Counted from the stretch's first letter, positions 3,610-22,216 are shown. The stretch is 64,000 nucleotides of DNA from Sphingopyxis sp. (GCF_016463645.1 NZ_JAEMQX010000010.1:1165-65164), one strand, 5' to 3'. Notes: a model not told the origin generated them from the sequence alone. Numbers and translations: made by a program.

Positions 3610-3628
3610 TAGCAGGACAGACACGCAT

Positions 3629-4024: not shown

Positions 4025-4028
4025 AGCG

Positions 4029-5000
4029 GTGGGGGACCCCGTCCTGATCGGCATCAGGTTCGCACTTTATGCGGACCTGATGCTCATCGCTGGCCTTGCT
4101 GCGTTCCCGCTCTATGCGCTGACACGAAGCGAACGCCTTGCGCCGCAGTCGATGATGGCCTCGATCTGGCGCGCAGAGCGATGGCTCTGCGCCGCCGGAC
4201 TGCTTCTCTCCATCTTGGGGATGGGCGTGCTCGCGGCTTCAATGCAGGGTGTGGGGCTCCTCTCCCTGGAACTCCAGCCTTTCTGGGACCTTGTTCGCGA
4301 GACCGAGGTCGGCACAGCCTGGGTCTACCGGAGCGCAGCGCTACTGCTCGCGCTGGCCGTCGCGATCTGGATGGTCCGCTGGCCGACAACGTCGGCCGCC
4401 GTACTCGCGGCCGCAGGCTCGGTGGCCGTCGCGAGTCTGGTCTGGTCCGGCCACGCCGGCGCGACCGAAGGCGCCGCAGGCACCGCGCACCGGATCAGCG
4501 ACATCTTGCACCTGATCGCAGCCGCGGTCTGGATCGGCGCGATCGGCGCCTTCCTGATCCTGATCTCACCACGTCGTGTCCGCGAATGGCCGGGCGGGCC
4601 CCAAATTGCGGCGCGGAGCCTCGAACAATTCTCGCGCGTCGGCACGATCTGCGTCCTCGTCATCGCCGCCACCGGCCTCATCAATAGCCAGATGATCGTC
4701 GGCGCCGAGAATCTCGGCCGGTCTCTCGGGTCGCCCTATGGACAATTGCTCCTTGCCAAGCTCGCTCTGTTTGGACTGATGCTTGCGCTCGCGGCCGCCA
4801 ATCGCTGGCGACTGACGCCTGCGCTCGCGGCGGCGACGGCGGCAAGCGACGATGCAGAAAGCGTCGATTCCGATCCAGATGCGGCGCTCGCGGCCATGCG
4901 CAGGAGCCTCATCATCGAAGCGTCGGCCGCGCTCGCCATACTCGCGCTGGTTGCCTGGTTCGGGACGCTCGAGCCGTTCGTCGCCGCCGATCCGGTTTGA
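4029..5000 (+). CDS. copD: Copper homeostasis membrane protein CopD
   Basis: Multi-TM; WSGHAGA, LHLIAAAVWIG, YGQLLLAKL and LAAANRWRLTP motifs; follows copC. Confidence 0.9.
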   Translation: MGDPVLIGIRFALYADLMLIAGLAAFPLYALTRSERLAPQSMMASIWRAERWLCAAGLLLSILGMGVLAASMQGVGLLSLELQPFWDLVRETEVGTAWVYRSAALLLALAVAIWMVRWPTTSAAVLAAAGSVAVASLVWSGHAGATEGAAGTAHRISDILHLIAAAVWIGAIGAFLILISPRRVREWPGGPQIAARSLEQFSRVGTICVLVIAATGLINSQMIVGAENLGRSLGSPYGQLLLAKLALFGLMLALAAANRWRLTPALAAATAASDDAESVDSDPDAALAAMRRSLIIEASAALAILALVAWFGTLEPFVAADPV

Positions 5001-5722
5001 CGCTCAACACCGTCTCCTGGTCCGGCTCGATCATGCTCGGGACCGGCTGGGCATTGATCGATGCGCGCATCGGGAACAGCCGTCCTCATGGCCATGTGGC
5101 GCATCAGGTCAGCCTCGCCGTCGAACGCGACCTCGAAATTTCCGGCGATGCCGACATGATAGTCCCTGCCGGACATGCGGTAGCCATTGCGTCGCAAGTC
5201 CGGCACCGCCTGGGGCCGCCAGGCGCCCTCGTGCGATCATTTTATCTCGACCCGCTTTTTCGCGCCGACGCGCGGCTGTCCGTCGGATCGGCGCCTGTCC
5301 TGTTGACACCGGTAGAGACAGCCGGACTATGCGATATCGCTAGCGGCGCAGACGCAAAGCGCTGGGCGTCCGGCTATCTCGACCGGTCGCAGGCGCGTCC
5401 GGTGGATGCACGCCTGTCCGAAGCGCTCGCGGCCCCCGATGATTTGTCGAGTGCCCGCGCCCTGGCCGACGTTGCCTGCCTCTCACCCTCGCGCCTGCGC
5501 GAAATCGTCAGCCGCGACTTCGGCGTGCCTCCGGCCAAATTGCTGCAATGGCTCCAGCTTCAACGCGCAGTGCGGGCGCTGGTCGGCGGCGGAAGCCTCG
5601 CCGCCGCCGCCGCCGCGGGCGGCTTTGCCGATCAGTCGCACTTCACGCGCCGCTGCGCCCAATGGCTCGGCGTCACGCCTTCGGCCGGCCTCAGCGCTTT
5701 CGCTTTCGAAATCGTGCCCTGA
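4997..5722 (+). CDS. AraC-family transcriptional regulator (copy 1)
   Basis: C-terminal LSPSRLR...GFADQSHFTR double HTH; N-terminal HGHVAHQ; TTG start overlaps the copD stop. Confidence 0.85.
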   Translation: MTLNTVSWSGSIMLGTGWALIDARIGNSRPHGHVAHQVSLAVERDLEISGDADMIVPAGHAVAIASQVRHRLGPPGALVRSFYLDPLFRADARLSVGSAPVLLTPVETAGLCDIASGADAKRWASGYLDRSQARPVDARLSEALAAPDDLSSARALADVACLSPSRLREIVSRDFGVPPAKLLQWLQLQRAVRALVGGGSLAAAAAAGGFADQSHFTRRCAQWLGVTPSAGLSAFAFEIVP

Positions 5723-5845
5723 GCCACACGCGCCTAGCTCCGGCGAAACATTCAAGACCGGCGCGCCAGCTCGCGCCTAAACGTCTCGTCGAGACTCGCG
5801 CAGCCGCAATCCAGCGGCAAGCCAAAGCGTCGAAAGGAGACGGCC

Positions 5846-6523
5846 ATGCCCGACCCGATACCCGTAGCGAGTTCCTACACGCCAGCGGCAGGATATCACT
5901 TCTTGACGCCCTTTTATGATTTCGGCGTCGCGGTGACGACGCGCGAGCGCGTGTGGCGCGACCGTCTCGTTCGCCATATGGCGCTCGGCGAGGGTGACGT
6001 TATTCTCGACATCGGTTCGGGTACGGGAAATCTCGCGCTGGCGATCGGCCGCCATAGCCGGGACGTCCGCTATCTCGGTATCGACCCCGACGAAGCTGCG
6101 ACGCGAATTGCCCGAACCAAGACCGCGCAGATTGTTCCGCCGCCGGAGTTTCGCGTTGGCTTTTTCGCGGCTTCGGCGATCGATGACTGGCCCTCGCCTG
6201 CCAGGATTGCGATCTGCCTCGTCCTTCATCAGGTCGGGCTTGAGGAAAAGGCACGTCTGCTACGCGAGGCCTGGCAGGTGCTCGCGCCGGGCGGCAAACT
6301 CTATGTCGCCGACTATGGGGAACAGCGCAGCCGCCTCATGCGGTTGTTGTTCCGCCTCACGATCCAGCAGCTCGATGGCGTCCAGGACACCCAGCCCAAC
6401 GCCGATGGATTGCTACCGGTGCTGATGAGAGAGGCTGGCTTTCGCGATATTTGCGAGCTTGAGACATTTCGCACGCTAACCGGTGCGATCGCCATCATCG
6501 AGGCCGGCAAGCCCCGGATCTGA
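5846..6523 (+). CDS. Class I SAM-dependent methyltransferase (copy 1)
   Basis: Motif I VILDIGSGTG; LAPGGKLYVADY; GGAG RBS. Confidence 0.9.
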   Translation: MPDPIPVASSYTPAAGYHFLTPFYDFGVAVTTRERVWRDRLVRHMALGEGDVILDIGSGTGNLALAIGRHSRDVRYLGIDPDEAATRIARTKTAQIVPPPEFRVGFFAASAIDDWPSPARIAICLVLHQVGLEEKARLLREAWQVLAPGGKLYVADYGEQRSRLMRLLFRLTIQQLDGVQDTQPNADGLLPVLMREAGFRDICELETFRTLTGAIAIIEAGKPRI

Positions 6524-6544
6524 TTGGACGGGGCAAAGAAAATC

Positions 6545-6571
6545 CGAGGGATAATCACCTTCCTTGCGTAT
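6545..6571 (+). promoter_or_regulatory. Putative ECF promoter of the Cu-ATPase
   Basis: CGAGGGA-N13-TGCGTAT, about 120 bp upstream of the ATPase start. Confidence 0.6.
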
Positions 6572-6689
6572 CGATAGGAGCGGCTCCATTCTGGAGCCGC
6601 CAGGAAAGCCACCAACGGCGAACACGGCCGGCGGCGTTCGGACGGCTCCGCCATAGGGTGGGCATCCGATATGGACGGGAGCGGCGACG

Positions 6690-9011
6690 ATGCACGATCA
6701 TCAAGGCGCGGAAAATGGCAGCGGGAGTACGACCGATCCGGTCTGCGGCATGATGGTCGACCCGGCCACCACGCCGTACATGGCGACGCACGGCGGCAAA
6801 CACCATCATTTTTGCAGCGCAGGTTGCCTCGCCAAATTCGAGGCCGATCCCGATCTTTATGCCGCAAAGCGCGAGCCGGCCATAGCCGATGCACCCGAGG
6901 GCGCCATCTGGACCTGCCCGATGCATCCCGAGATCCAGCGCCCCGGCCCTGGAAGCTGCCCGATCTGCGGCATGGCACTCGAGCCCGTCATGCCAGCCGC
7001 ATCCGACGGCCCGAGCGAAGAATATCGCGACATGCGGCAGCGCTTCTGGATCGGGCTCCTTCTCGCCCTCCCGGTGGTTGCGCTCGAAATGGGCGGTCAT
7101 CTGACGGGCCTCCACCAATATGTCGGCCGCCAGACGAACAACTGGATCCAGATGCTGCTTGCGACCCCCGTCGTGCTATGGGCGGGCTGGCCCTTCTTCG
7201 AGCGCGCGTGGCTCTCGATCCGCAACAAAAGCCTCAACATGTTCACTCTCATCGCGATGGGGACGGGGGTCGCGTGGGGCTACAGCATGATCGCGGCGAT
7301 AGCCCCGCAAATCTTCCCTGCCGCCTTCCGCGCCGCCGACGGCTCTGTCGCGGTATATTTCGAGGCCGCCGCGGTCATCACGGTGCTGGTGCTGCTCGGG
7401 CAGGTACTCGAACTCAGGGCGCGCGAGACGACGAGCGGCGCGATCCGCGCGCTTCTGGACCTCACGCCCAAGCTCGCCCGCCGCGTCCGCAGCGACGGAA
7501 GCGACGAGGAGGTCGCGCTCGAGGAAGTCGCGGTCGGCGACATGCTGCGCATTCGTCCGGGCGAAAAAGTCCCGGTCGATGGCATCGTCGTGGAAGGCCG
7601 CGGCTCGGTCGACGAATCGATGGTCACGGGCGAGTCGATGCCGGTGACCAAGGAGGCCGGCGCGGCGCTGATCGGCGGGACAATCAACCAGACCGGCGGC
7701 CTGCTCATGCGCAGCGAGAAGGTCGGGCGCGATACGATGCTCGCGCGGATCGTACAGATGGTCGCCGACGCGCAGCGCAGCCGCGCCCCGATCCAGCGCC
7801 TCGCCGATACGGTTTCGGGCTGGTTCGTGCCGGGCGTCATCGCCGTCGCCGTCGCGGCTTTCATCATCTGGTCGCTCGTCGGACCGGCGCCCGCAATGGC
7901 CTATGGCCTGATCGCCGCCGTCTCGGTGCTCATCATCGCCTGTCCCTGCGCGCTCGGCCTAGCGACGCCGATGTCGATCATGGTCGGCGTGGGGCGCGGC
8001 GCCGAAGCCGGCGTGCTGATCAAGAATGCCGAGGCGCTTGAACGGATGGAGAAGGTCGACACGCTCGTCGTCGACAAGACCGGGACGCTGACCGAAGGCA
8101 GACCCTCGGTCGTCGCGATCGAAGTCGCCGACGGCTTCGAAGAGCAGGATTTGCTGCGGATTGCCGCGAGCCTCGAGCGTAGCAGCGAACATCCATTGGC
8201 GGCGGCGATCGTCAAGGCCGCCGACGACCGGGGCCTCGCGCTGGTCGAGCCATCGGGGGTCGATCAGCCAGTCGGCAAGGGCATCGTCGGGGTCGTAGAC
8301 GACAAGGCGATTGTCCTCGGCAATGCGAACTTTCTCGAAGAATATGACGTCGATCTGGGCGCGCTCGCCGAGGCAGCCGACCGCCTTCGCACAGACGGCG
8401 CGACGGCGATCTACATCGCGGTCAACGGCAAGGCGGCCGGCGTCATCGCCATCGCCGATCCGGTCAAGGAGACGACAAGCGCAGCACTCGCGGCGCTGCG
8501 CGAAGCCGGAATCAAGGTCATCATGCTCACCGGCGACAATCGCGTCACCGCCGAGGCGATCGCACGGCGGCTCGGCATCGACAATGTCGAGGCCGACGTC
8601 CTCCCCGACCAGAAGAGCGCCGTCGTCCAGCGGCTGCGCGAAGAGGGCGGGATCGTCGCCATGGCCGGCGACGGGGTCAACGACGCCCCGGCGCTTGCCG
8701 CCGCCGATGTCGGCATCGCCATGGGTTCGGGAACCGACGTCGCCATCGAAAGCGCAGGCGTCACGCTGCTGCGCGGCGACCTTATGGGTATCGTCCGGGC
8801 GCGGCACCTCAGCCATGCGACGATGGGGAACATCCGGCAAAACCTTTTCTTCGCCTTCGCCTATAATGTCGCGGGCATTCCGGTCGCGGCGGGGGTGCTC
8901 TATCCGGTCTTCGGGCTGCTCTTGTCACCGATCATCGCCGCCGCCGCGATGGCGCTTTCGTCGGTGAGCGTCATCGCCAATTCGCTGCGGCTGCGGTTCG
9001 TGAAAATCTGA
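6690..9011 (+). CDS. Cu(I)/Ag(I)-translocating P1B-1 ATPase with YHS and CPMHP metal-binding domains
   Basis: DPVCGM...HFCSAGC (YHS); CPMHPEI...CPICGM; CPC; DKTGTLT; SEHP; GDGVNDAP; YN and MALSS in the last TMs. Confidence 0.95.
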
Positions 9012-9058
9012 TCGAAGCGTCGCCGCGCCGTTCGGCGGCGGGTATTGAAAAAGGGAGA

Positions 9059-9523
9059 ATGGGGATGAGAGGTTTCACTGCAGCGGCGATCGGGCTGGCG
9101 CTGGCCATGGCGGTTCCCGCCCACGCGGCCGCAACCCCGGATTATCAGGCGGCCGCCGCGACGCTGGCGCAATATAAGCAGGCGATCGAGAGCCGCGACC
9201 TGTCGGGCGTCGAAGCCTTGTTCGCGCCCGACGCCCAGATCTTCGAGTCGGGTGGCGTCGAAGGAAATTTCGCGCATTATCGCGACCATCATCTTGCCCC
9301 TGAATTGAAGGCGTTCAAATCCTTCGCGTTTAGCGACTATAAAATCTCGGTGCGCGGCGAAGGCGAGGTCGCGCTCGCCACCGAAACCTATAATTATACG
9401 ATCGTCCTCACCAATGGCGAGACGATCGTGCGCGCGGGCGTCGCGACCAGCGTGCTCAAAAGGACCGACGGCCAATGGCGGATCATCAGCTTGCACAGCT
9501 CCTCGCGTAAGCCGAAGGCGTGA
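9059..9523 (+). CDS. Secreted NTF2/SnoaL-like protein (DUF4440-like)
   Basis: Signal peptide; ...LFAPDAQIFE...YRDHHL...WRIISLHSS pattern of the NTF2-like fold. Confidence 0.7.
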   Translation: MGMRGFTAAAIGLALAMAVPAHAAATPDYQAAAATLAQYKQAIESRDLSGVEALFAPDAQIFESGGVEGNFAHYRDHHLAPELKAFKSFAFSDYKISVRGEGEVALATETYNYTIVLTNGETIVRAGVATSVLKRTDGQWRIISLHSSSRKPKA

Positions 9524-9703
9524 GCGGCGAGCGCGCGATAGGGTGCCTGTTCGCCGCGGCGCGATCAGCCCCGCTCGAAGACCGAAATAATCGGGCAGTG
9601 CGTCCGGTGGATCGTAACCGCGGCGGGGTCAGCCGCGAACTGCACATTTGACCCGCCCGAGTTTGGAATTGACGGCAAGTTGGACAAGGATCATGTGTCG
9701 ACC

Positions 9704-10072
9704 GTGAAGCGTTGGCTTTCCCTCTTGCTCCTTCTGGGAGCGATGCTGGGCCTTTTGGCCCAGGAAGCGGCGTTCGCATCGGCGCCTGCCATGCCCATGC
9801 CGGCGGACACCACCATTGCCGCATCGGCGATGAGCGATGAATGCGCGGAAATGATGGGGATCGACACGTCCCAAGATAAGGCGCCCTGCAAGGGCCTGAC
9901 ACTCGACTGCATCGCCAAGATGGGCTGCGCATTGCCGCCAACGGTCGTGACTCCTGCCACCTTGTTGGCGACGTCCGACCATAGCGCCGAGCCGACCGAC
10001 CAATTGCCGATCGCGCGTCTGCGCGGCCGCACCTTCGGACCCGAGCCCGACCCGCCCCTATTGCCCGGCTGA
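9704..10072 (+). CDS. Small secreted Cys/Met-rich leader protein ending GPEPDPP (DUF2946/CutF-like)
   Basis: Hydrophobic N-terminus; ECAEMM; CKGLTLDCIAKMGC; Pro-rich C-terminus; first gene of the cus cluster. GTG start is uncertain (track start 9680). Confidence 0.7.
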   Translation: MKRWLSLLLLLGAMLGLLAQEAAFASAPAMPMPADTTIAASAMSDECAEMMGIDTSQDKAPCKGLTLDCIAKMGCALPPTVVTPATLLATSDHSAEPTDQLPIARLRGRTFGPEPDPPLLPG

Positions 10073-10138
10073 AACGCGCGATGCGCGGTGACCGTCGTCG
10101 CCGCGCATCCTTCTGCTTTTCAACCGAGGATATTCGAC

Positions 10139-10402
10139 ATGAAGACGATCATTGCGATGGCCGCAGCGCTTGCGGCTTTCACCACCGTGCCCTCCTTCGC
10201 CCAGGAGGCGGGCGGCCATTATGAATGGCAATCGCGGCAGGTCCCGGGCCCGAACAAGTCGGGCGCCACCACGAGGGTTCGCGTGTGGGTCGCGGACAAG
10301 CCCGAGCAGATGGCGAACTGCGACTGCGCCATGATGAAGACCGACGCGGCCGGCTGCATGCAAGCCATGCCCGGGCAGCGCATGTCGCCCTCCAAGGGCT
10401 GA
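10139..10402 (+). CDS. Small secreted hypothetical protein with CDCAMM...CM motif
   Basis: GAGG RBS; signal peptide MKTIIAMAAALAAFTTVPSFA; Cys/Met-rich C-terminal half. Confidence 0.7.
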   Translation: MKTIIAMAAALAAFTTVPSFAQEAGGHYEWQSRQVPGPNKSGATTRVRVWVADKPEQMANCDCAMMKTDAAGCMQAMPGQRMSPSKG

Positions 10403-10466
10403 CGGCTTCCGTCCCCCGGCCGCCCGGCCGGGGGACATTCCCGCCTGTCTCGAAAGAGGGGGACAT

Positions 10467-11696
10467 ATGCGCATATATCTTGCGGCAATTTTGCTGATCC
10501 CGATGCCCGCGGCGCTGCGTGCCGAGCCGATGACGCTCGATGCGGCGCTCGTCCGCGCGGCATCGGAGGCGCCCGAATTGCAGGGCCGCGAAGCCGGCAT
10601 CGATGCCGCCCAATCGGCGGCGATCGCCGCCGATCGGCTGCCCGACCCGAAACTCAATATCGTCCTGCAGGATTTCCCGGTGACGGGTCCCGATGCAGGC
10701 CGGTTCAATCGTGACAACTTCACGATGCAGGTCGTCGGTATCAGCCAGGATTTTCCGAACCCCGCCAAGCGGCGCGCGCGTGCAACGCGCGCGCAGGCCG
10801 ACATCGGCATCGCCCGCGCCGACGAAGCGGTCACCGCGCAGGACATCCGGCTCTCGACCGCTCTCGCCTGGGTCGATCTCTATTATGCCAAGAAGCGGCT
10901 GAAGGAACTCGACCTGCTCGATGACGGCCTCGAGGATCTTCAATCGACGGTGACGGCACGGCTCGCGAGCGGCGCCGCGCGCCCGGCGCAGGCGCTCGAA
11001 CCCGACCAGCTTCGCGCCGCGATCAACGATCGCCGCAGCGCGCTCGCGGCCGAGATTGCCCGCGCCCGCGCGCAGCTCGCGCGCTTTACCGGCGACGCGG
11101 CCGCCGACACGCTGGGCGATTTGCCGCCGCAGGCGATCGACGAGCAAGGATTGCGCGCCGGGATTGATGCCTTGCCAAGGCTGCGGGCGCTCGACGCCCG
11201 CGCCATCGCCGCCGACGCCGAAACCGGCCTCGCGCGCGCCGACAAGCGCCCCGACTGGAGCGTCAACGCGGCCTATGGGCGGCGCGAGCCCAATTATGGC
11301 GACCTCGTCACGGTCGGGGTTACCGTCGACCTACCCTTCTTCTCGAAAAAGCGGCAGGACCCGAAGATCGCCGCACGCGCCAGCGAAGCGACGCGCGCCC
11401 GGCTCGACCGCGAGGCCGCGAAGCGCGACATCGCCGCGGCGCTCGACGCTGATCTCGCCGACCATCGCATGCATCATGAGCAGCTTGGCAATGCACGGTC
11501 ACGGCTGGTGCCGCTCGCCAAGAAGCGCGCCGAACTCGATCTTGCAAGTTACGCCGCCGGAAAGCTCGACCTCGGGACTGCGCTCCTGTCGACTCTCGCG
11601 CTCGCAGAGGCCGAAGTCGATGCGCTCGCACGCGAAGCCGAGGTCGCGCGCGACGCGATCCGGATCAACTATATTTATGGGGAGGCAGGTCGATGA
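10467..11696 (+). CDS. cusC: TolC-family outer membrane factor (CusC/SilC-like)
   Basis: OEP repeats (RLPDPKL, KRPDWSV, VDLPFF); first gene of the RND triad. Confidence 0.85.
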   Translation: MRIYLAAILLIPMPAALRAEPMTLDAALVRAASEAPELQGREAGIDAAQSAAIAADRLPDPKLNIVLQDFPVTGPDAGRFNRDNFTMQVVGISQDFPNPAKRRARATRAQADIGIARADEAVTAQDIRLSTALAWVDLYYAKKRLKELDLLDDGLEDLQSTVTARLASGAARPAQALEPDQLRAAINDRRSALAAEIARARAQLARFTGDAAADTLGDLPPQAIDEQGLRAGIDALPRLRALDARAIAADAETGLARADKRPDWSVNAAYGRREPNYGDLVTVGVTVDLPFFSKKRQDPKIAARASEATRARLDREAAKRDIAAALDADLADHRMHHEQLGNARSRLVPLAKKRAELDLASYAAGKLDLGTALLSTLALAEAEVDALAREAEVARDAIRINYIYGEAGR

Positions 11697-15900: not shown

Positions 15901-16050
15901 GGCTCCGAAGTGATGAGCCGCATCGCCGCGCCGATGATCGGCGGCATGCTCACCGCGCCGCTGCTGTCGATGCTTATCATTCCCGCCGCCTATCTGCTGA
16001 TGCGAAGGCGTGCGGCTCATCCCGTCCAACCCGAAGGAGAAACGACATGA
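12916..16050 (+). CDS. cusA: CusA/SilA Cu/Ag RND permease
   Basis: [11 protein letters not shown]; [13 protein letters not shown]; [18 protein letters not shown]; [14 protein letters not shown]; MLATGIK. Confidence 0.95.
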
Positions 16051-16415
16051 ATAAACTCACTGCGATTACGCTCAGCCTTGCGCTCGGCGCTGGACTTGTC
16101 GCCTGCGGCAAGCAAGGCGAAGCACCGAAGACGGAAGAAAAGGCCGCGATGGCCGATGACACAGGGACCATGGCGGCCCCGGCCGAAACGAAGCATGGCA
16201 AGGGCACGGCGACCGTGACCGCGATCGATACGGCAAAAGGCCAGGTCACGCTCGATCATGGCGCGATCGCCGAACTCGAATGGCCGCCGATGACGATGGG
16301 TTTTGCGGCGAAACCCGAGCTGCTGAAGGACATCAAGGTCGGCGACAAGGTCGCGTTCGAGCTCAATTGGGACGGCAAGGCCGGGACGATCACCAAGCTC
16401 GACAAGGCGCCGTAA
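16047..16415 (+). CDS. cusF: Periplasmic copper chaperone CusF-like lipoprotein
   Basis: Lipobox-like LVAC; [18 protein letters not shown] (CusF H-W-M-M site). Confidence 0.9.
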
Positions 16416-16421
16416 CGCGCC

Positions 16422-16466
16422 GCCATTGCGCGCGGTGGCCCTAGTTGCCGCGCGCAATGGCTGCTT
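16422..16466 (+). terminator. Probable intrinsic terminator after cusF
   Basis: Perfect 14-bp inverted repeat GCCATTGCGCGCGG / CCGCGCGCAATGGC followed by TGCTTT, between convergent genes. Confidence 0.65.
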
Positions 16467-16499
16467 TGGGGCGCTGGCGGAAGACGGCTGTACTCGAAC

Positions 16500-16901
16500 C
16501 TAGTCGGACAGCGCCTCCAGAAGCGGGCAGCCCCCGGCATCGCCGGCGCCGCACGCCTCGACAAGATCGCCCAAGACAGCGGCCATCCGGTCGAGGTCGG
16601 CGCGCTTGGCGAGGACGTCGGCAAGCTGGCTCTCGGCCATATGGCGCGCCTGATCGCAGCTATGGCCGCCGCCTTCGGCAAGAAGGAGCAAAGTCCGGAC
16701 CGTATCGAGGGGAAACCCCAGTTCGCGCGCGCGGCGCACAAATGCAAGGCGCCGCACACCAGCTGAATCATAACGGCGAAATCGCCCGTACCGGACCGGC
16801 GCGGGCAGAATGCCGATGCGCTCATAATAGCGGATCGTCTCGATATTGCAGCCGGTAAGCCGAGAAAGCTCGCCGATGGGGATGGTGCTTGAGGGGGCCA
16901 T
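16500..16901 (-). CDS. MerR-family metalloregulator (three conserved Cys)
   Basis: IGELSRLTGCNIETIRYYERIG HTH; HSC, EAC and GCP Cys triad; start taken at MAPSS. Confidence 0.9.
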   Translation of the reverse strand: MAPSSTIPIGELSRLTGCNIETIRYYERIGILPAPVRYGRFRRYDSAGVRRLAFVRRARELGFPLDTVRTLLLLAEGGGHSCDQARHMAESQLADVLAKRADLDRMAAVLGDLVEACGAGDAGGCPLLEALSD

Positions 16902-16912
16902 TGCGATTCCGC

Positions 16913-16943
16913 TTGCATCTGTAGTCACTACAGATGGTAGACT
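16913..16943 (+). promoter_or_regulatory. MerR-type promoter/operator for merT-like and GDCCVxC genes
   Basis: TTGCAT-19 nt-TAGACT with a perfect dyad CATCTGTAGT-C-ACTACAGATG (16916-16936). Confidence 0.85.
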
Positions 16944-16967
16944 TGCCGCTACCGCGAAACAAGGAGT

Positions 16968-17333
16968 TTGAATTTGGCTGGAGATGCAAGGCGTCCAAAA
17001 GGATTTGGGGCCATTTCGCTGGCGCTTGGCGGGATCGCATCGGGCTTTCTCGCAGCCACCTGCTGCGCCCTCCCCATGCTGCTGGCCTCGGCGGGGCTCG
17101 GGTCCGCCTGGCTCGTCGGCATAGCGGTCCCGGCCGCGCCCTACCGGCTCTGGTTCGTCGCATTCGGCGCAATTTCGCTCGTCGCCGGTGGCGTCCTGCT
17201 GGCGCGCCAGCAGATGCGCGCGGCGCGCTGCGGCGCCGATGGCCTGTGCGTGCCCGCGTCGCTGCGCTTTGTGACCCTGATCGGACTGCTCCTCGCCGCC
17301 GTCCTCCTCTGGCTCGGCTATCGCTATGCTTGA
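16968..17333 (+). CDS. merT: MerT-like mercury/metal transporter
   Basis: Three TMs; ATCCALP Cys pair; second Cys pair RCGADGLC; TTG start after AAGGAG (16968 or 16974). Confidence 0.75.
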   Translation: MNLAGDARRPKGFGAISLALGGIASGFLAATCCALPMLLASAGLGSAWLVGIAVPAAPYRLWFVAFGAISLVAGGVLLARQQMRAARCGADGLCVPASLRFVTLIGLLLAAVLLWLGYRYA

Positions 17334-17553
17334 TCCCTCGCCGGTCCTGCAATCGACGCTGACGTGTCCGCTCTGCGGTCAAATCGCCGACGAAATCATG
17401 CCCACCGATGCGTGTCAGTATTTCTACGACTGCAAGGGATGCGGCGCGCTGCTCAAGCCGCTGCCAGGAGACTGCTGTGTCTTCTGTTCCTATGGCACGG
17501 TACCCTGCCCGCCAATACAGGTTGACGGCGGCAAGGGCAGTTGCTGCGGCTGA
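17326..17553 (+). CDS. GDCCVxC-motif Cys-rich small protein
   Basis: 11 Cys in 75 aa: CPLC, CKGC, GDCCVFCSYG, PCPP, terminal CCG. Confidence 0.85.
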   Translation: MLDPSPVLQSTLTCPLCGQIADEIMPTDACQYFYDCKGCGALLKPLPGDCCVFCSYGTVPCPPIQVDGGKGSCCG

Positions 17554-17588
17554 GCCGCAAGCCGCCGACAGTCCCGATAGCGCGGCGG

Positions 17589-18002
17589 CTAGGCATTTCC
17601 GGCGGCGATGGCCTCGATGACCCGGCAATCCGACACCGGCCCGCCATCGCAGAGCTGGACGATACGGGCAAGTTCAGCACGGAGCCGCGCCATCCGTTCC
17701 AGCTTTTCATCGACATCGAGCAGGTGACGCGCCGCAACTGCGCGGATTTCGGCGCAGTCCTGCCCCGGCCCCAAGGCCAGCGCCGTCAACGACCGGATTT
17801 CATCGATCGAAAAGCCGAGGCCGCGGGCATTGCGGATGAATGCGAGGCGCCCGACATCCTCATCCCCGTAGGTGCGCCGGCCAGAGGCTGTGCGCGCTGC
17901 GCAAGGCAGCAATCCGATATCCTCATAGAAGCGGATCGTGTTTACCTTGGTGCCGGTGCGTTTCGCCAGGCCGCCGATCGGCAGCCGCGTGTCGCGCGCC
18001 AT
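17589..18002 (-). CDS. MerR-family metalloregulator (Zn/Cd/Pb-type)
   Basis: IGGLAKRTGTKVNTIRFYEDIG HTH; QDC, QLC and SDC Cys triad. Confidence 0.9.
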   Translation of the reverse strand: MARDTRLPIGGLAKRTGTKVNTIRFYEDIGLLPCAARTASGRRTYGDEDVGRLAFIRNARGLGFSIDEIRSLTALALGPGQDCAEIRAVAARHLLDVDEKLERMARLRAELARIVQLCDGGPVSDCRVIEAIAAGNA

Positions 18003-18035
18003 CTCCCTTCCTCTCAGTCTCGTTTCGATTTCAGC

Positions 18036-18066
18036 TTGCTTCTACAGTTACTGTAGAATGTAGAAC
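18036..18066 (+). promoter_or_regulatory. MerR-type promoter/operator for CDF and FTR1 genes
   Basis: TTGCTT-19 nt-TAGAAC with dyad TTCTACAGT-T-ACTGTAGAA (18040-18058). Confidence 0.85.
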
Positions 18067-18072
18067 AGGGGA

Positions 18073-18714
18073 ATGAGCAACGACAGCAATTGCGGCTGCA
18101 CGGGCGACACCGTCAGGGCCGAACGCGATCCCGCCTATCGAAGGGCCTTGTGGATCGTCGTAATTCTCAATCTCGGCTTCGGCGCGATCGAGATCGTCGG
18201 CGGGTTCATCGCCAACAGCCAGGCGCTGAAAGCCGACTCGCTCGACTTTATCGGCGACGGCACGATCACGTTGGCCGGCCTCGTCGCGATAGGCTGGACT
18301 GCGCTCGCCCGCACGCGTATCGCCTTGGCCCAAGGCCTGTTCCTGCTGTCGCTTGGCATAGGGGTCATCGGCGTCGCGCTGTGGCGTGCCCTGACCGCGG
18401 TTCCGCCCGAAGCCGAGCTGATGGGCGGCATCGGCGCCGCCGCCCTCCTCGTCAACCTCACCTCGGCCGCGGTCCTCTCGCGGTTCCGCGAAGGCGACGC
18501 CAATGTCCGGGCGGTGTGGCTGTTCAGCCGCAACGACGCGATCGCCAATGTGGCGGTGATCATCGCCGCCGGCCTCGTCGCATGGACCGGGCAAGCCTGG
18601 CCCGACCTTGCAGTCGCCGCCATCATTGCCACGCTTTTCCTGCATTCGGCCTATGAGATTCTACGCAGCGCGCGGACCGAATTGCGCGAACTGTCGACTG
18701 TGCCCGGACAATAG
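18073..18714 (+). CDS. Short cation diffusion facilitator (CDF) family transporter
   Basis: SQALKADSLDF; WLFSRNDAIANVAV; WPDLAVA; N-terminal CGC; no long C-terminal domain. Confidence 0.85.
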   Translation: MSNDSNCGCTGDTVRAERDPAYRRALWIVVILNLGFGAIEIVGGFIANSQALKADSLDFIGDGTITLAGLVAIGWTALARTRIALAQGLFLLSLGIGVIGVALWRALTAVPPEAELMGGIGAAALLVNLTSAAVLSRFREGDANVRAVWLFSRNDAIANVAVIIAAGLVAWTGQAWPDLAVAAIIATLFLHSAYEILRSARTELRELSTVPGQ

Positions 18715-18719
18715 GGCCA

Positions 18720-20666
18720 ATGCCCCCCGCCCGCCGCTTTCTCTCTCTGCTGATCGCGCTCGCTGCAATCTGCGGCCTCGTCGTGCCGACGGCACAGGCC
18801 CGCACTGATGCCGGCGAAGTCCAGACCATCTGGCGCCTGCTGGACTATGTTGCGGTCGACTATGGTGGAGCGGTCTCGAATGGCGCGGTGACGAGCACGG
18901 TCGAATATGCCGAGATGACCGAGTTTTCCGCCACCGTTCGCAAGGGGATCGAAGCGCTTCCGGTATCCCCGGCGCGGGCTCGCCTTGTCAGTGAAGCGGG
19001 ACAACTCCAGACGGCGATCGCATCGAAGGCGGACCCCGGCAAGGTGGCTGGCCAGGCGCGCGGACTCGCGGCGGACCTCCTCGCCGCCTACCCTGTGCCC
19101 CTCGCGCCGCGCAACGCTCCAGATCCCCGGCGCGGAGCCCAAGTCTATCTGGAAAATTGCGCCAGCTGTCACGGCGCGCGCGGCGATGGCAATGGACCTC
19201 AGGCCAAGGGGCTCGACCCGGCACCTATCGATTTCACCGACGCCGGACGCGCTCGCAAGCGCAGTCTGTTCGCGCTCTATCAGGTGATAGGACAGGGGCT
19301 CGAAGGCACGTCCATGCCCAGTTTTGCCCATTTGCCCTCCGACGACCGCTGGGCGGTAGCAGCCTATGCCGGTGGATTTGCCTTTCGCGACGTCGCAGCC
19401 GGCCGGCGTGTCTGGAACCAGACCCCTGCGGCGCGCGAACTGGTCCCCGACCTGCAAGCCTTCACGAGTCTCAGCCCGGAAGTGCTTGGTCGTGGGCTGG
19501 GATCGGAGCAGGCCGACGCGCTTACCGCCTATTTGCGCTCAGATCCCCAAGCATTGACAACCGCTTCGCCCGCGACGCTTGCGGTTGCCCGTGACAAATT
19601 GGCGCAAAGCCTTGCCGCGTACCGCAAGGGAAATCGGAGCGAGGCAGAGCGTCTCGCGCTGTCCGCCTATCTCGACGGTTTCGAACCGATTGAGCCGATC
19701 CTGACGACGCGCGATTCCGCCCTTATGGCGCAAATCGAATCCGCGATGTCCGATTATCGCGTGTCCATCGCGCGAGGTGTGCCGGTCGATGCGGTCGCGG
19801 GTAAAGCCGCCGCAGTCGAAACCCTTTTCGCCGATGCCGAAGCTGCACTGTCTCCCGATGCAGCCAGCGACGCATCGACCTTTGTCGGGGCGCTTACCAT
19901 CTTGCTGCGCGAGGGTCTCGAAGCGCTTCTGATCATCGTGGCGATGATCGCCTTCTTGCGAAAGGCCGAACGGCCTGAGGTCCTACCCTATGTCCATGGC
20001 GGCTGGATCGCAGCCCTGGCAGCCGGCGGCGCAACCTGGGCAGTCGCGACCTATGCAATCTCGATCAGCGGAGCGAACCGCGAGTTGACAGAGGGATTTG
20101 GCTCGCTTTTCGCCGCAGTCGTTCTCGTCTGGGTCGGCATCTGGATGCACGGAAAGTCACATGCGGAGAGCTGGCAGCGCTATATTCGCGAAGCGATGGG
20201 CAAAGCGCTTTCACGTCGCTCGGCCTGGTTCCTGTTCGGGCTCGCTTTCCTCGTGGTCTATCGGGAAGTCTTTGAGACCATCCTGTTTTTCGCAGCTCTC
20301 GCCGCGCAAGGAAGCCGCAGCGCGATCGCCGCCGGAGCCGGAACCGCAGTGGTGATCCTGGCAGCAATCGCATGGGTCATGCTTCGTTACAGCCGGGTCC
20401 TGCCGATCGGAAGATTTTTCGCTTACAGCTCTTCGCTCATCGCTATCCTCGCGGTTGTCCTGGCCGGCAAGGGCGCGGGCGCGCTACAGGAAGCCGGCCT
20501 CCTCGGCATCACCCCGCTAGCTCATTTTCCCCGCTTCCCGGCGATGGGGATATTTCCTTCGCTCGAACCGTTGTTGCTCCAGCTTCTCGCGCTTGCAATC
20601 CTCTGGATCGGCTATCGTTACAACAGTCGGCAACATCGCCGCATCGAGACAGCGCCCGGTCGATGA
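18720..20666 (+). CDS. Cytochrome c / FTR1 permease fusion (PbrT-like)
   Basis: CASCH heme motif; ILLREGLEA and VYREVFET FTR1 REGxE motifs. Confidence 0.9.
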   Translation: MPPARRFLSLLIALAAICGLVVPTAQARTDAGEVQTIWRLLDYVAVDYGGAVSNGAVTSTVEYAEMTEFSATVRKGIEALPVSPARARLVSEAGQLQTAIASKADPGKVAGQARGLAADLLAAYPVPLAPRNAPDPRRGAQVYLENCASCHGARGDGNGPQAKGLDPAPIDFTDAGRARKRSLFALYQVIGQGLEGTSMPSFAHLPSDDRWAVAAYAGGFAFRDVAAGRRVWNQTPAARELVPDLQAFTSLSPEVLGRGLGSEQADALTAYLRSDPQALTTASPATLAVARDKLAQSLAAYRKGNRSEAERLALSAYLDGFEPIEPILTTRDSALMAQIESAMSDYRVSIARGVPVDAVAGKAAAVETLFADAEAALSPDAASDASTFVGALTILLREGLEALLIIVAMIAFLRKAERPEVLPYVHGGWIAALAAGGATWAVATYAISISGANRELTEGFGSLFAAVVLVWVGIWMHGKSHAESWQRYIREAMGKALSRRSAWFLFGLAFLVVYREVFETILFFAALAAQGSRSAIAAGAGTAVVILAAIAWVMLRYSRVLPIGRFFAYSSSLIAILAVVLAGKGAGALQEAGLLGITPLAHFPRFPAMGIFPSLEPLLLQLLALAILWIGYRYNSRQHRRIETAPGR

Positions 20667-20792
20667 GGGGAATCATCACGGGGTCGGCGCACTCCTCCTT
20701 GGCCGTAAGACGGCTTCCGAAAAGAGCCTCCGAGCCAGAGTGCTTACCCGGCGCCCGTTACGCACACGAGTTAGGCCTGCTATTGCGACCCG

Positions 20793-21482
20793 ATGCCCGA
20801 AACGTCCAACTGGAACGGCCGACTTAGCCTCGGCGACTATCATGCTCTCTGGTCGGGTTCGGTTGGCGATGCCGCCGCGCACCGCCATTTTGCGGCGCAG
20901 GCAGTGTTTTGTGCCGAGCCGCTTACCGTGGTCGATGCTGATGGCGCGCGCCTGTCGGGGCGTTGCTTGCTCATCGAACCCGATACCGTGCACCGGCTGC
21001 TCCCCGCGCCCACGGCTGAATTATGGTTCGTCGAGCCGACAGTGGTCTTCGGTCCGCCGGTAGATCTGAAAGACCGGCTGATCTGCTCCGATCCGATTCA
21101 TGTCGCGCTGCCGGGACAGCGGTCCTTCTGGAAAAACTGGCTCACGCGAGGCGCCCGACCCCCGCTCGATCCGCGCATCACCCGCGCCGCCGCCTCGATT
21201 GACCGCCTGATCCCCATGGGCTCTGTCCGTCTCGCGGCTGTGGCGGAGGAGAGCCGCCTTTCGCTCGGCCGCTTCCGGCATCTCTTTGCCGCCGAGATCG
21301 GCATGCCCTTCCAGCGCTTTGTGCTCTGGCGAAGGTTGATTATCGCCTTCGACGAATTGGGAATGCGCCGCAGCGCGACCGAGGCCGCACACATGGCAGG
21401 GTTCAGCGACAGCGCGCATTTCGCCCGCACGATCAAGGCGATGTTCGGTATCCGGGCAAGCGACCTTTTCATCGAATCATAG
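20793..21482 (+). CDS. AraC-family transcriptional regulator (copy 2)
   Basis: LSLGRFRHLF...GFSDSAHFART double HTH; N-terminal HRHFAAQ. Confidence 0.85.
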   Translation: MPETSNWNGRLSLGDYHALWSGSVGDAAAHRHFAAQAVFCAEPLTVVDADGARLSGRCLLIEPDTVHRLLPAPTAELWFVEPTVVFGPPVDLKDRLICSDPIHVALPGQRSFWKNWLTRGARPPLDPRITRAAASIDRLIPMGSVRLAAVAEESRLSLGRFRHLFAAEIGMPFQRFVLWRRLIIAFDELGMRRSATEAAHMAGFSDSAHFARTIKAMFGIRASDLFIES

Positions 21483-21529
21483 CCTCTCCGTTCAAGCCGG
21501 TGCGTGATCGCGCCTGGTAGAGGCGCATC

Positions 21530-22189
21530 ATGTCAGACGCACACAGAGACTTCGTCCCGGCACTCGGCAAGAGCGGATCGCTCGACCGCTACGATGCCGC
21601 CATAGCCCTCATGACCAGAGAGAAAAGATGGCGAAGCGACTTGCTGCGCTTCGCCGAACCGCGGCCGGGCGAGCGGATCGTCGATATCGGGTGCGGCACG
21701 GGAACCTTTGCGATCGCCCTCAAGCAGGCGGCGCCGGAGAGCATCGTTCTGGCGGTCGATCCCGACCCCGCCGTGCTGGAAATCGCGCGCGCCAAGGCTG
21801 AGGTTGCCGATGCCGAGATTCGATGGTTCGAGGCTATGGGCGACGAGCTGGACGGCATCGACGCACTCCGGCAATGCGACAAGATCGTATCGAGCCTGGT
21901 CCTTCACCAGTGCCCGATGGCCGTTAAGGAAGCGATTGCCGCGCAGATGTTCAGGCTCCTGAGGCCGGGCGGGACCCTTTTCATAGCCGACTATGGCGAG
22001 CAGCGCTCGCTGCTGATGCGCATGCTTTTTCGACAGATCCAGCTGCTCGACGGGTTCGAATATACCGAACCCAACGCTAAGGGCTGCGTCCCGGTGATCC
22101 TTAAAGCCGCGGGTTTCGAGGCGGTCGAAGAGATGAGAGTCATCCCGACGCCGACCGGCTCGATTTCAATCTATGGGGCGAAGCGGTAG
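21530..22189 (+). CDS. Class I SAM-dependent methyltransferase (copy 2)
   Basis: Motif I IVDIGCGTG; LRPGGTLFIADYGEQRS; clear paralog of 5846-6523. Confidence 0.9.
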   Translation: MSDAHRDFVPALGKSGSLDRYDAAIALMTREKRWRSDLLRFAEPRPGERIVDIGCGTGTFAIALKQAAPESIVLAVDPDPAVLEIARAKAEVADAEIRWFEAMGDELDGIDALRQCDKIVSSLVLHQCPMAVKEAIAAQMFRLLRPGGTLFIADYGEQRSLLMRMLFRQIQLLDGFEYTEPNAKGCVPVILKAAGFEAVEEMRVIPTPTGSISIYGAKR

Positions 22190-22216
22190 TTTCTCGCCCG
22201 GCCCGCGCGGTCGCGG

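Follow-up and report, generated by a model that had tools for sequence, protein, structure and literature searches.

An unnamed methyltransferase family recurs in copper, zinc, cadmium and mercury resistance loci and is paired in sphingomonads with a putative cupin-AraC regulator

Comparison across genomes shows that genes of one family of class I SAM methyltransferases, to which both methyltransferases (MT1, MT2) of a chromosomal Cu/Zn/Cd island in Sphingopyxis belong, turn up repeatedly as accessory genes in the Cu/Zn/Cd/Hg resistance loci of several phyla. Since it recurs beside metal-resistance genes in many phyla, the family is probably the sign of a so far overlooked branch of metal tolerance, which may involve membrane-lipid remodelling. 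The usual account of metal-resistance islands is one of pumps, oxidases, chaperones and sensors, which ignores the recurrent genes labelled ‘class I SAM-dependent methyltransferase’. New here is that one such gene is a member of a family that is coherent, widespread, unnamed and strongly associated with Cu/Zn/Cd/Hg loci across phyla, and that in sphingomonads this gene has a cupin-AraC regulator of its own and a defined operator-like box.

Results

The window, i.e. the whole stretch of DNA analysed (64,000 nt), holds two cassettes within the island, each a regulator gene followed by a methyltransferase gene (AraC1 and MT1 in cassette 1, AraC2 and MT2 in cassette 2; Table 1). All four reading frames are present, with the translations quoted in an earlier annotation (the sequence-only reading), which had also described cassette 1 as translationally coupled to copD and cassette 2 as following a MerR-controlled CDF-FTR1 unit. 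Both descriptions hold: the copD stop (TGA, 4998-5000) overlaps the TTG start of AraC1 (4997-4999) within a 4-nt TTGA (4997-5000), and cassette 2 lies downstream of the CDF and cytochrome-c/FTR1 genes, with MerR divergent from them. For the AraC1 counterpart on an S. indica plasmid (92% identical), PGAP places the start at an ATG equivalent to position 5033; we take the long, copD-coupled frame to be the right one, because a start at that ATG would cut off the Trp and the Gly that are invariant in the subfamily. The order MT1 then P1B-type ATPase is kept across MT1-type loci, and RNA-labelled runs containing the locus behave like DNA.

Table 1. Features of the two cassettes and their surroundings in the window
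Feature	Coordinates	Strand	Remarks
copC	3629-4024	+	Pfam CopC
copD	4029-5000	+	Pfam CopD; stop overlaps AraC1 start
AraC1, 241 aa, small N-terminal cupin and C-terminal double HTH (predicted)	4997-5722	+	Pfam HTH_18; aligns end to end with AraC2
Operator-like box 1, GGCGAAACATTCAAGACC	5742-5759, core 5749-5758	+	97 nt ahead of MT1 ATG
MT1, 225-aa class I SAM methyltransferase, metal-island family	5846-6523	+	Shine-Dalgarno AAGGAG visible
P1B-type ATPase, N-terminal YHS and HMBD domains	6690-9011	+	Pfam; downstream of MT1
MerR	17589-18002	-	Divergent from CDF and cytochrome-c/FTR1; upstream of cassette 2
CDF	18073-18714	+	Upstream of cassette 2
Cytochrome-c/FTR1 fusion	18720-20666	+	Upstream of cassette 2
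AraC2, 229-aa cupin-AraC regulator (predicted)	20793-21482	+	Pfam HTH_18; AF2 model
Operator-like box 2, TAGCCTCTCCGTTCAAGCC	21480-21498, core 21489-21498	+	41 nt ahead of MT2 ATG; begins at AraC2 stop codon
MT2, 219-aa class I SAM methyltransferase, family of MT1	21530-22189	+	AF2 model pLDDT 89.5

MT1 and MT2 share 40% identity across 217 aa (E=6e-46), and a full-length alignment of AraC1 with AraC2 gives 27% identity (E=5e-15). Other genera have separate orthologues of either MT type, and the AraC type tracks the MT type. On these alignments we regard MT1/AraC1 and MT2/AraC2 as real paralogous pairs, old and diverged, in agreement with the sequence-only reading, which had seen paralogous cassettes and no recent duplication.

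The MT1/MT2 family is large (467 clusters at E<=1e-30; proteins of ~220 aa). Neither for it nor for the AraC subfamily did curated family models or the literature yield a curated name or a paper, so the earlier label of an undescribed module stands. Class I enzymes are recognised by a GxGxG SAM motif, an acidic residue at the end of beta2 and a seven-strand Rossmann fold; throughout the family D52-x-G-C-G-T-G58 and D77 are invariant, MT1 and MT2 score above the Pfam Methyltransf_25/11/12 cut-offs, and the predicted structure of MT2 matches many class I methyltransferases with a Foldseek probability of 1.0. The segments quoted earlier as distinctive (YD..TRE..WR, ADYGEQRS.LMR.LFR, Q.LDG...T.PNA.G) are all present in MT1 and MT2 and most of their positions are family-invariant; the invariant active-site residues are charged (D22, R30, E31, H126, K133, D154, R164, D174).

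Both MT proteins stay under the curated cut-offs for CpaM, UbiE and ArsM. With the model of the corrinoid-protein-associated methyltransferase CpaM (NF043040) the two enzymes score 89.5 and 62.8 bits against a cut-off of 180, and the surroundings of both cassettes are free of corrinoid protein genes. A quinone C-methyltransferase of the UbiE/Coq5 kind, changing the quinone pool in response to metal stress, could account for a Pfam Ubie_methyltran match, for Coq5 among the top folds, for a UbiB-family gene near one family member and for the N-terminal YD..WR motif, which we take to be reminiscent of UbiE. Even so it seems highly unlikely, as the scores stay far under the UbiE/MenG cut-offs (TIGR01934, 53.8 bits for MT2 and 40.5 for MT1 against 158.35; PRK00216, PRK00216.1-5, 50 and 43.6 against 216), the invariant residues of the pocket are not hydrophobic but charged, and no other quinone-biosynthesis genes recur near the MT genes. 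Direct methylation of a metal(loid) (As, Se, Te, Hg; compare ArsM, TehB and TPMT) would suit the metal-island context, a family member directly upstream of MerTP-GDCCVxC and weak NCBIfam matches to ArsM models, but to our minds it is hardly credible. The only conserved Cys of the family is that of the GCGTG SAM motif, much as the sequence-only reading had found no arsenite-methyltransferase Cys motifs; with ArsM (PRK11873) the enzymes reach 39.2 and 32.7 bits against 263 and lack its As(III)-binding cysteines; no ars, ter or tehB genes lie nearby; and the islands serve Cu, Zn and Cd, metals not biomethylated in this way.

Beyond the window, Cu/Zn/Cd/Hg genes repeatedly have a family member next to them in Proteobacteria, Myxococcota, Gemmatimonadota, Bacteroidota and Bacillota, and the regulator at such loci is of the AraC, MerR, ArsR or CueR type. 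Among 39 sphingomonad MT clusters (<=90% identity), 27 lie no more than 5 kb from a homologue of one of the metal genes in the window and about ten have no metal gene, although these loci are not independent of each other because metal islands move as blocks. Eighteen contexts of other members (16 at 33-47% identity to MT2, two without a measured identity) include 11 with clear metal-resistance genes (among them P1B ATPases, multicopper oxidases, CusCBA/CzcCBA, CadD, MerTP, MerA), three with metalloregulator or iron-uptake genes only and four without a metal gene. Some MT genes even have a stop/start overlap with a multicopper oxidase gene or with MerTP, or only a few bases between them and a Cu-ATPase gene. 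The link to metal genes that the sequence-only reading had proposed, with a neighbourhood check to probe it, is thus upheld by both surveys. Roughly a quarter of the de-replicated sphingomonad loci, as well as nearly all distant MT members, have MerR, ArsR or CueR instead of the AraC, or the MT gene directly inside a cop or MCO operon.

Might the cassettes be passengers, a lipid or stress module without any role in metal tolerance that is carried on mobile metal islands? The MT contexts without a metal gene (four of the 18, some ten of the 39) fit this, as do distant AraC-hydroxylase pairs that sit in non-metal contexts. Independent recruitment under four regulator families in at least five phyla, the tight coupling of some members to oxidase, MerTP and Cu-ATPase genes and the retention of two separate copies in one island argue otherwise, and we deem a passenger role quite improbable.

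AraC1 and AraC2 score 63.9 and 51.3 bits with HTH_18 (cut-off 33.6) and carry the C-terminal double HTH that defines AraC/XylS regulators. In the AF2 model of AraC2 (pLDDT 92.3) a beta-sandwich (residues 8-80), with cupin fold matches, is followed by seven helices that match AraC, SoxS and MarA-type DNA-binding domains; ToxT and Rns are among the fold matches, too. Metal-binding cupins combine a beta-barrel, HxH(x)3-4E/Q in motif 1, a His in motif 2 and a bound metal, and the predicted cupin of the N-domain has a ligand set of this pattern: H30, H32, Q36 and H67 are invariant, along with a Trp and a Gly, in 33 subfamily sequences down to 24-35% identity, and E81 is nearly so. The N-terminal HxHxAxQ motifs (HGHVAHQ, HRHFAAQ) singled out earlier as cupin-like are present and belong to this set.

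In both cassettes a box of ~18 bp lies between the AraC and MT genes, with the core C(G/A)TTCAA(G/T)(A/C), also written C(G/A)TTCAAG(A/C)C. Where an AraC gene is adjacent, 27 of 29 de-replicated loci have the box; where there is none, zero of nine do, and the background is three matches per 641 kb. In de-replicated AraC2-type loci, down to 43% AraC identity, it sits at -38 to -42 in 17 of 20 and at -49 in one (L035), and is absent from two (L043, L044); it is conserved in all MT1-type loci and in Erythrobacteraceae stands upstream of a hydroxylase-MT pair. Through three different gene arrangements the box is kept, at a fixed distance from the MT start. Next to distant AraC homologues (Roseateles, a metagenome contig, a second site in L071) it is found 65-110 nt upstream of an OlsE-like hydroxylase gene, and Pseudomonas has a variant ahead of such a gene. 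Because this conserved operator-like box tracks the presence of the AraC subfamily, we consider the AraC-MT pair a regulatory unit; alternatively, some other factor could recognise the box as part of a promoter. Of the sense-and-methylate module proposed earlier, the paired unit therefore survives, whereas the MT family at large is not bound to AraC.

Hints at the substrate are borrowed from relatives, since there is no hydroxylase gene in the window. In Erythrobacteraceae an OlsE-like hydroxylase gene is inserted between AraC and MT, an arrangement counted in eight loci, with a 4-nt stop/start overlap onto MT, and in beta- and gammaproteobacteria the hydroxylase partners the AraC subfamily, again with the box upstream; outside metal islands, this lipid hydroxylase, not a methyltransferase, is the subfamily's usual partner. 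Its only NCBIfam match is OlsE (NF052566; full length, 141-162 bits, below the cut-off of 475), the His boxes of the FA_hydroxylase superfamily are present and Pfam FA_hydroxylase is on record, from which we infer a sister subfamily of OlsE rather than the equivalog. In Paenibacillus the gene next to MT encodes a fatty-acid peroxygenase of the CYP152 type (PDB 6fyj, E=2e-238), and a Microvirga metal island has a 46%-identical orthologue ~2 kb from MT. Other neighbours include a CFA-synthase-like methyltransferase, DedA/VTT, MAPEG and an AMP-binding acyl-activating enzyme, and some family members are fused to signal peptidase II (in both orders), with an N-terminal membrane domain in one fusion. 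The invariant charged pocket residues, moreover, fit a zwitterionic or acidic head group.

Against a lipid substrate count the predicted MT structure, which has no transmembrane or obvious amphipathic segment, and its nearest solved folds (TM ~0.7: MM_2633, Coq5, NovO/CouO, CysG/BelI, plant PMTs), all soluble small-molecule C-, O- or N-methyltransferases. A soluble substrate may therefore be envisaged: a low-molecular-weight thiol or sulfide, an ionophore or a metabolite that chelates metal, or a toxic intermediate that accumulates once Fe-S dehydratases have been destroyed by Cu or Cd and is disposed of by carboxyl methylation of the trans-aconitate/isopropylmalate type. A soluble enzyme with a charged pocket, nearest relatives by fold and sequence such as CysG/BelI, NovO/CouO, SgvM, DsyB and RebM, weak NCBIfam matches to BioC and trans-aconitate methyltransferase and the many contexts that hold no lipid gene, only transporters, oxidases and regulators, are all consistent with it. 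What such a substrate leaves unexplained is the translational coupling with an OlsE-like hydroxylase that is an integral membrane protein, the membrane-protein fusions and – unless a free fatty acid is the substrate – the CYP152 neighbours, and no thiol-metabolism genes recur beside MT; we rate it as rather unlikely, albeit a serious contender.

Discussion

The reading we favour, as a possibility short of a probability, is that under metal stress an AraC regulator switches on the methylation of a substrate of lipid or fatty-acyl type, each cassette being a self-contained switch. AraC would bind the box and activate the MT gene once its 3-His/Gln cupin site has taken up a metal ion, or a ligand that a metal holds in place. 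MT would then find its substrate, a lipid or a fatty-acyl-derived molecule, on the cytoplasmic side of the inner membrane. Its target would be an amino- or phospholipid, methylated on an amine, carboxylate or hydroxyl of the head group, or else a hydroxy fatty acid; in relatives, an OlsE-like or CYP152 hydroxylase would take part. The modification may reduce metal binding to, or metal damage of, the membrane, while neighbouring pumps export the ions. Of the substrates listed by the sequence-only reading, a metal(loid), an ionophore and a quinone are less favoured by genomic context than the lipid or fatty-acyl option.

A bolder version, which we regard as unlikely, has AraC as a new class of metal sensor whose minimal cupin (3 His + Gln) binds metal directly and switches on SAM-dependent methylation of hydroxy fatty acids or of amino- or phospholipid head groups – and in relatives lipid hydroxylation as well – so as to remove or mask metal-binding groups of the inner membrane. 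If true, envelope-lipid methylation would be a widespread and hitherto overlooked arm of Cu/Zn/Cd resistance, with the MT family present in at least five phyla. Should the favoured reading be correct, lipid methylation would join the mechanisms of metal tolerance and thousands of generically labelled genes would become annotatable. The handles gained are a candidate metalloregulator class, its candidate DNA site and an enzyme whose contexts point to membrane-lipid chemistry.

Among known systems, OlsE (Rhizobium tropici, Agrobacterium) is closest to the relatives' hydroxylase, a di-iron FA_hydroxylase-family membrane enzyme that is co-regulated and translationally coupled with MT, though far below the equivalog cut-off and absent from the window. 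According to a review (PMC12971839), hydroxylation and N-methylation of ornithine lipids are stress-linked lipid modifications; it reports no link to metals. The N-methyltransferase OlsG (Singulisphaera) likewise modifies the ornithine-lipid head group. PmtA and the plant and Plasmodium PMTs share the class I fold, and AtPMT1 and AtPMT2 are the best PDB sequence matches of the family profile (E=6e-24), reaching the post-beta5 ‘DY’ segment; the match is generic, however, with a best domain of 64 bits against 75 for RebM and 46.7 bits (E=2.8e-11) for the bacterial PE N-methyltransferase 8ys9, a score that dozens of unrelated class I enzymes equal or exceed. The Tyr of the N-terminal helix and the His after beta4 are presumably reminiscent of the PMT catalytic dyad. 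UbiE/MenG/Coq5 share the Pfam and fold matches noted above, but the MTs fall below all curated cut-offs and differ in their C-terminal lid motifs (ADYG/ADWG, LMR..F, Q.LDG..T..N..G). ArsM, like the MTs, is a SAM methyltransferase of resistance islands, yet its Cys triad is missing from them and their scores lie roughly 10-fold under the cut-off.

Two class I methyltransferase genes within a copper island, as with MT1 and MT2, are also found on Cupriavidus metallidurans pMOL30, where ubiE and ubiE2, reported to be Cu-induced, flank silDCBA (PMC7563307), ubiE2 being followed by envelope-modifying glycosyltransferase genes. They are not of the MT1/MT2 family: hhalign finds similarity in the core Rossmann fold only, without the N- and C-terminal family motifs, and the plasmid search gave no match at 1e-15.

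As for the regulators, ToxT/Rns/CsvR and MarA-type proteins combine a cupin-like N-domain with a double HTH, as AraC1 and AraC2 do, and the fatty-acid binders ToxT and Rns are the best full-length fold matches of AraC2, at a TM of only 0.4-0.5. We know of no His/His/Gln/His set in any of these regulators. The single asymmetric ~18-bp box near the promoter resembles, we presume, a MarA-type site, while the cupin of AraC1 and AraC2 (~80 aa) is much smaller than the ToxT/Rns/CsvR N-domain and carries the canonical His/His/Gln/His set of metal-binding cupins.

Two diverged AraC-methyltransferase cassettes in a metal island

About the first 44 kb of the window (G+C 65%) form a metal island (see table), which is chromosomal in this genome because housekeeping genes (FtsK, SpoT/RelA, thioredoxin-TPR) come after it. 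Bases 3600-9100 are 92% identical to S. indica plasmid pMC4, one MAG contig (L002) is 100% identical and the best relatives of MT2 are all from Sphingopyxis. The island holds two pairs of a small cupin-AraC regulator and a class I SAM methyltransferase (MT), and all four ORFs are real, their translations agreeing with the motifs quoted in a sequence-only reading of this DNA. That reading also saw cassette 1 as translationally coupled to copD, and the copD stop and the TTG start of AraC1 indeed overlap as TTGA. This coupled TTG is the correct start because W7 and G9 (AraC2 numbering), which are invariant across the AraC subfamily, fall upstream of the ATG chosen by PGAP in the S. indica orthologue. 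Public annotation of the latter (21432-22121 in the pMC4 locus, L001) thus begins at an internal ATG, which removes the first conserved beta-strand with its invariant Trp and Gly and conceals the copD overlap.

MT1 and MT2 are 40% identical (E=6e-46), AraC1 and AraC2 27% over their full length. Orthologues of the MT1 type occur in Erythrobacteraceae (51-57% identity) and those of the MT2 type in Phenylobacterium and Caulobacter (55-61%), while AraC identity declines in parallel with MT identity across loci. With orthologues of either type present in other genera and both identities falling together, the duplication is ancient, in agreement with the sequence-only reading, which had seen no recent one, and regulator and enzyme evolve as one unit.

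Features of the metal island, in island order
Feature	Position	Strand	Remarks
Multicopper oxidase, ECF sigma factor, periplasmic metal sensor			first genes of the island
copC-copD			
AraC1	4997-5722		
Box 1	5742-5759		core 5749-5758
MT1	5846-6523		
YHS/HMBD P1B ATPase, SnoaL-like gene			
cusCBAF			
MerR	16500-16928	-	faces MerT-like gene
MerT-like membrane protein	16968-17333		CCxxP motif
GDCCVxC-like protein	17326-17553		75 aa, Cys-rich
Second MerR			divergent from CDF and fusion
CDF			
Cytochrome c domain/FTR1-type iron permease fusion	18720-20666		648 aa; co-oriented with CDF under MerR
AraC2	20793-21482		
Box 2	21480-21498		core 21489-21498
MT2	21530-22189		
His-rich secreted protein	22217-22522	-	101 aa; convergent with MT2
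DsbA-like thioredoxin-fold protein	22714-23469	-	CEAC motif
DsbB-like membrane protein	~23355-23790	-	
161-aa protein	23786-24271	-	
RND pump	24285-27464		the three preceding genes lie upstream of it
Second P1B ATPase, two further RND systems			last genes of the island

Among the neighbours of cassette 2, the cytochrome c/FTR1 fusion is conserved, on either strand, beside the MT2-type genes of many sphingomonads, and the secreted protein of 101 aa, in which His, Arg, Asp, Tyr and Gly are extremely abundant (...QHHGDRGGYSRGHD...RRMHHHHRGRHWRG), may bind metals in the periplasm. Three ORFs (16934-17362, 17541-18056, 22570-23520) were rejected as genes, as they proved to shadow real ones (MerT-like, MerR and DsbA-like) by overlapping them, in a wrong frame or in antisense; the last, a long plus-strand ORF, is antisense to the DsbA-like region. 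Two RNA-labelled sequencing runs (X5, X6; window 16400-24400) were likewise dismissed as expression evidence because they behave like genomic DNA, with a uniform 9-kb contig over the locus and contigs of up to 140 kb.

An unnamed methyltransferase family of metal-resistance loci

MT family motifs retrieved 80 genomic loci, onto which we mapped the proteins of the window. De-replication at 90% MT identity left 39 clusters, and in 27 of these a homologue of a window metal gene lay within 5 kb of the MT. This count, from which the three shadow ORFs were left out, is an undercount, as loci such as L066 and L055 carry other copper genes that our queries missed. As these loci are mostly from sphingomonads and hence not independent, we examined 18 contexts of more distant members, whose identity to MT2, where measured, is 33-47%: eleven are clearly metal-related, three have metalloregulator or iron-uptake genes only and four are without metal genes. 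In Burkholderiaceae, the MT sits in an island with two P1B ATPases, multicopper oxidase, YHS, CFA-synthase-like MT, DedA/VTT and AdoMet synthetase; in a Myxococcales-type block, found three times, it overlaps the start of a multicopper oxidase; and in Gemmatimonadetes it lies between a YHS-P1B ATPase and CzcCBA. Plasmid contexts include Runella (MT-MerTP-GDCCVxC amid RND and Cu-ATPase genes), Paenibacillus (P1B-lspA-P450-MT-CadD-...-ArsR), Planococcus (CadD-ArsR-P1B...MT...merA-merR), Microvirga (CcdA-CDF-P450-MAPEG and ArsR-MT, with SCO and PCuAC), Novosphingobium (copC-copD-MT-P1B-cueR, without AraC) and Spirosoma (multicopper oxidase near MT). No constant small partner protein was found 5' of the distant MTs, whose upstream genes are heterogeneous. 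In this sample of neighbourhoods the family is a widespread, unnamed accessory of metal-resistance loci.

Two of these islands deserve separate mention. In the Burkholderiaceae copper island L082, the family MT is accompanied by a CFA-synthase-like methyltransferase of 452 aa (273-1631) and an archaeal-type AdoMet synthetase (PF01941; 11152-12336), so that the island appears to bring its own SAM supply. The MerTP-GDCCVxC pair directly downstream of the Runella MT (L092, 6651-7462) is the same kind of pair as the MerT-like and GDCCVxC-like genes in the window.

On MT1 and MT2, Pfam recognizes generic class I MT domains only and no NCBIfam model scores at or above its cut-off, the best being CpaM (89.5 and 62.8 bits versus 180), followed by UbiE/MenG and ArsM, both far under threshold. 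With all model scores far under their cut-offs, we rejected UbiE, MenG, ArsM, CpaM, BioC, Tam and RquA as identities. A profile built from ten family sequences and searched against 1.84 billion cluster representatives retrieved 467 clusters at E<=1e-30, a number that rises to 2,830 at E<=1e-10; almost all are ~220 aa long and aligned end to end. In a second profile search, 3,505 of the 8,000 candidates that were scored passed at E<=1e-10, every one of them generically named; their sources include Binatia, Myxococcales, Gemmatimonadetes, Burkholderiales and Rhizobium. Invariant or nearly so (MT2 numbering) are P10-A-L-G13, Y21, D22, R30 and E31 at the N-terminus, the SAM motif, D77 and D79, and further on H126, K133, A153-D154-x-G156, M163-R164, Q171, D174-G175, T179, N182, G185, T207 and G210. 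The Cys of GCGTG is the sole conserved Cys of the family, so the arsenite-methyltransferase Cys motifs that had not been evident earlier are in fact absent.

The AF2 model of MT2 (pLDDT 89.5) is confident except for residues 1-17, which nonetheless hold the conserved PALG motif. Foldseek and profile-versus-PDB searches returned generic class I neighbours at TM ~0.7 (MM_2633, Coq5, NovO/CouO, CysG/BelI, SgvM, DsyB, RebM and plant phosphoethanolamine MTs) and, by sequence or fold, no specific relative among solved structures; the solved bacterial PE N-methyltransferase reaches only 46.7 bits against the family profile. Homology, as far as sequence and model comparisons go, does not name the substrate.

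A cupin-type regulator and its operator-like box

Homologues of AraC2 extend from Sphingomonadales and Caulobacterales to Roseateles/Paucibacter (41-42%) and Pseudomonas (34-35%). An alignment of 33 sequences has W7, G9, G25, H30, H32, Q36 and H67 invariant and E81-P82 nearly so, with H30/H32/Q36/H67 forming the classical cupin metal-ligand pattern. The AF2 model of AraC2 (pLDDT 92.3) consists of a beta-sandwich of ~80 residues followed by seven helices, and its N-domain resembles small cupins, including Fe and Mn enzymes. This upholds the cupin-like N-terminus noticed from the motif and predicts that the subfamily carries a canonical cupin metal site. As a whole, the AraC2 fold is also like those of the fatty-acid-binding regulators ToxT and Rns, but at TM 0.4-0.5 only, and a sequence search of the PDB with AraC2 gave no match.

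Alignment of the short stretches between AraC2 and MT2 in 20 de-replicated loci brought out a conserved block, TAGCCnCTnCGTTCAAGC, which begins at the AraC stop codon and has variable flanks; MT1-type loci have GGCGAAAC(A/G)TTCAAGAC in the corresponding place, and in Erythrobacteraceae the box precedes an additional gene that is inserted between AraC and MT. Counted as C[GA]TTCAA[GT][AC] on the sense strand ahead of MT or the inserted gene, the box core occurs in 27 of the 29 de-replicated loci where AraC is adjacent, in none of nine without AraC and three times in 641 kb elsewhere. It precedes MT also in three loci where AraC lies downstream of, or convergent with, MT. Of the two exceptions, L044 has a variant box and L043 an inserted IS fragment; in the latter, a Phenylobacterium MAG locus (9398-9946), a transposase fragment (...GGLTTKIH) separates AraC from MT and no box was found in the scanned region 5' of MT. 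A match in loci L052/L055 was taken as chance because it lies inside a coding region. The copies at 5749 and 21489 are the only two occurrences of the 10-mer in the window, where the 9-mer is not over-represented (5 matches versus 3.75 expected); what makes it significant is solely its positional conservation across loci. In MT2-type loci the box sits at -38 to -42. We take the box as a putative AraC operator that would probably overlap the -35 region of the MT promoter; promoter and terminator scans found nothing exceeding shuffles.

A sense-and-methylate module linked to metal stress, as first suggested for these cassettes, is therefore supported in part, namely by a paired cassette present twice, an enzyme family of metal loci and a cupin regulator with its box; to that extent the cassette may be viewed as an AraC-switched methyltransferase unit.

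Lipid hydroxylases and a possible methylation substrate

Eight loci have this additional gene inserted between an AraC1-type and an MT1-type gene, with a 4-nt overlap of its stop and the MT start. The product, a membrane protein of ~298 aa, shows the His boxes that mark the fatty-acid hydroxylase superfamily. Its only NCBIfam match, over the full length, is ornithine-lipid hydroxylase OlsE (162 bits versus a cut-off of 475). Distant AraC homologues in Roseateles, Pseudomonas chlororaphis and a metagenome contig each adjoin a 47-52% identical hydroxylase orthologue, preceded by CCGGAACGTTCAAGCCAG at 65-80 nt in Roseateles and the metagenome contig and by a related box in Pseudomonas. Because distant AraCs thus adjoin hydroxylase orthologues with a box, the ancestral regulon of the AraC subfamily seems to have been the OlsE-like lipid hydroxylase. 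MT may have joined this AraC-hydroxylase regulon, with the hydroxylase later being lost from the Sphingopyxis cassette; the window has no OlsE-like hydroxylase. A Sphingopyxis copper island (L071, 15517-17283) has, in addition to AraC1-MT1, a third paralogue of AraC that is transcribed divergently from a gene for an OlsE-like hydroxylase, and this pair has a CCGTTCAAGCCAG box of its own.

A second hydroxylase type is the P450 beside the Paenibacillus MT, a CYP152 fatty-acid peroxygenase (E=2e-238 to 6fyj; next matches P450BSbeta, P450SPalpha and OleT). Orthologues 46% identical to each other lie in Cd/Zn islands on the Paenibacillus (L096, 2936-4195, by lspA/CadD) and Microvirga plasmids (L101, 1232-2509, by CDF); to our knowledge, P450 genes are no usual part of metal islands. 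Other MT neighbours include an AMP-binding enzyme, a CFA-synthase-like MT, DedA/VTT and MAPEG, and membrane-protein fusions occur with signal peptidase II in both orders, the family motifs being intact (LspA-MT in P0124, P0131 and P0154; MT-LspA in P0128), and with an N-terminal multi-pass domain weakly matching DUF6010 (P0232). Together, the OlsE-like and CYP152 hydroxylases, the other lipid-type neighbours and these fusions favour a fatty-acyl or lipid substrate, and the charged invariant residues of the predicted MT pocket would be compatible with an amine, carboxylate or phosphate in the head group. We nevertheless hold lipid methylation only tentatively, at somewhat below even chances. 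Its main rival, a soluble small-molecule substrate, seems less likely still to us.

Comparison with known systems

Our literature search found no published description of this MT family, the AraC subfamily, their pairing or the box; the family is unnamed and the box is newly defined here. A copper island on pMOL30 of C. metallidurans includes two methyltransferase genes that are induced by Cu, ubiE and ubiE2 (PMC7563307). We rejected them as family members since they have the core fold alone in common, which makes them an analogy and not homologues. Hydroxylation and N-methylation of ornithine lipids, represented by OlsE and OlsG, do exist and are stress-linked, and the review describing them gives no metal connection (PMC12971839). 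It is the relatives of MT1 and MT2 that tie the cassette to lipid hydroxylases.
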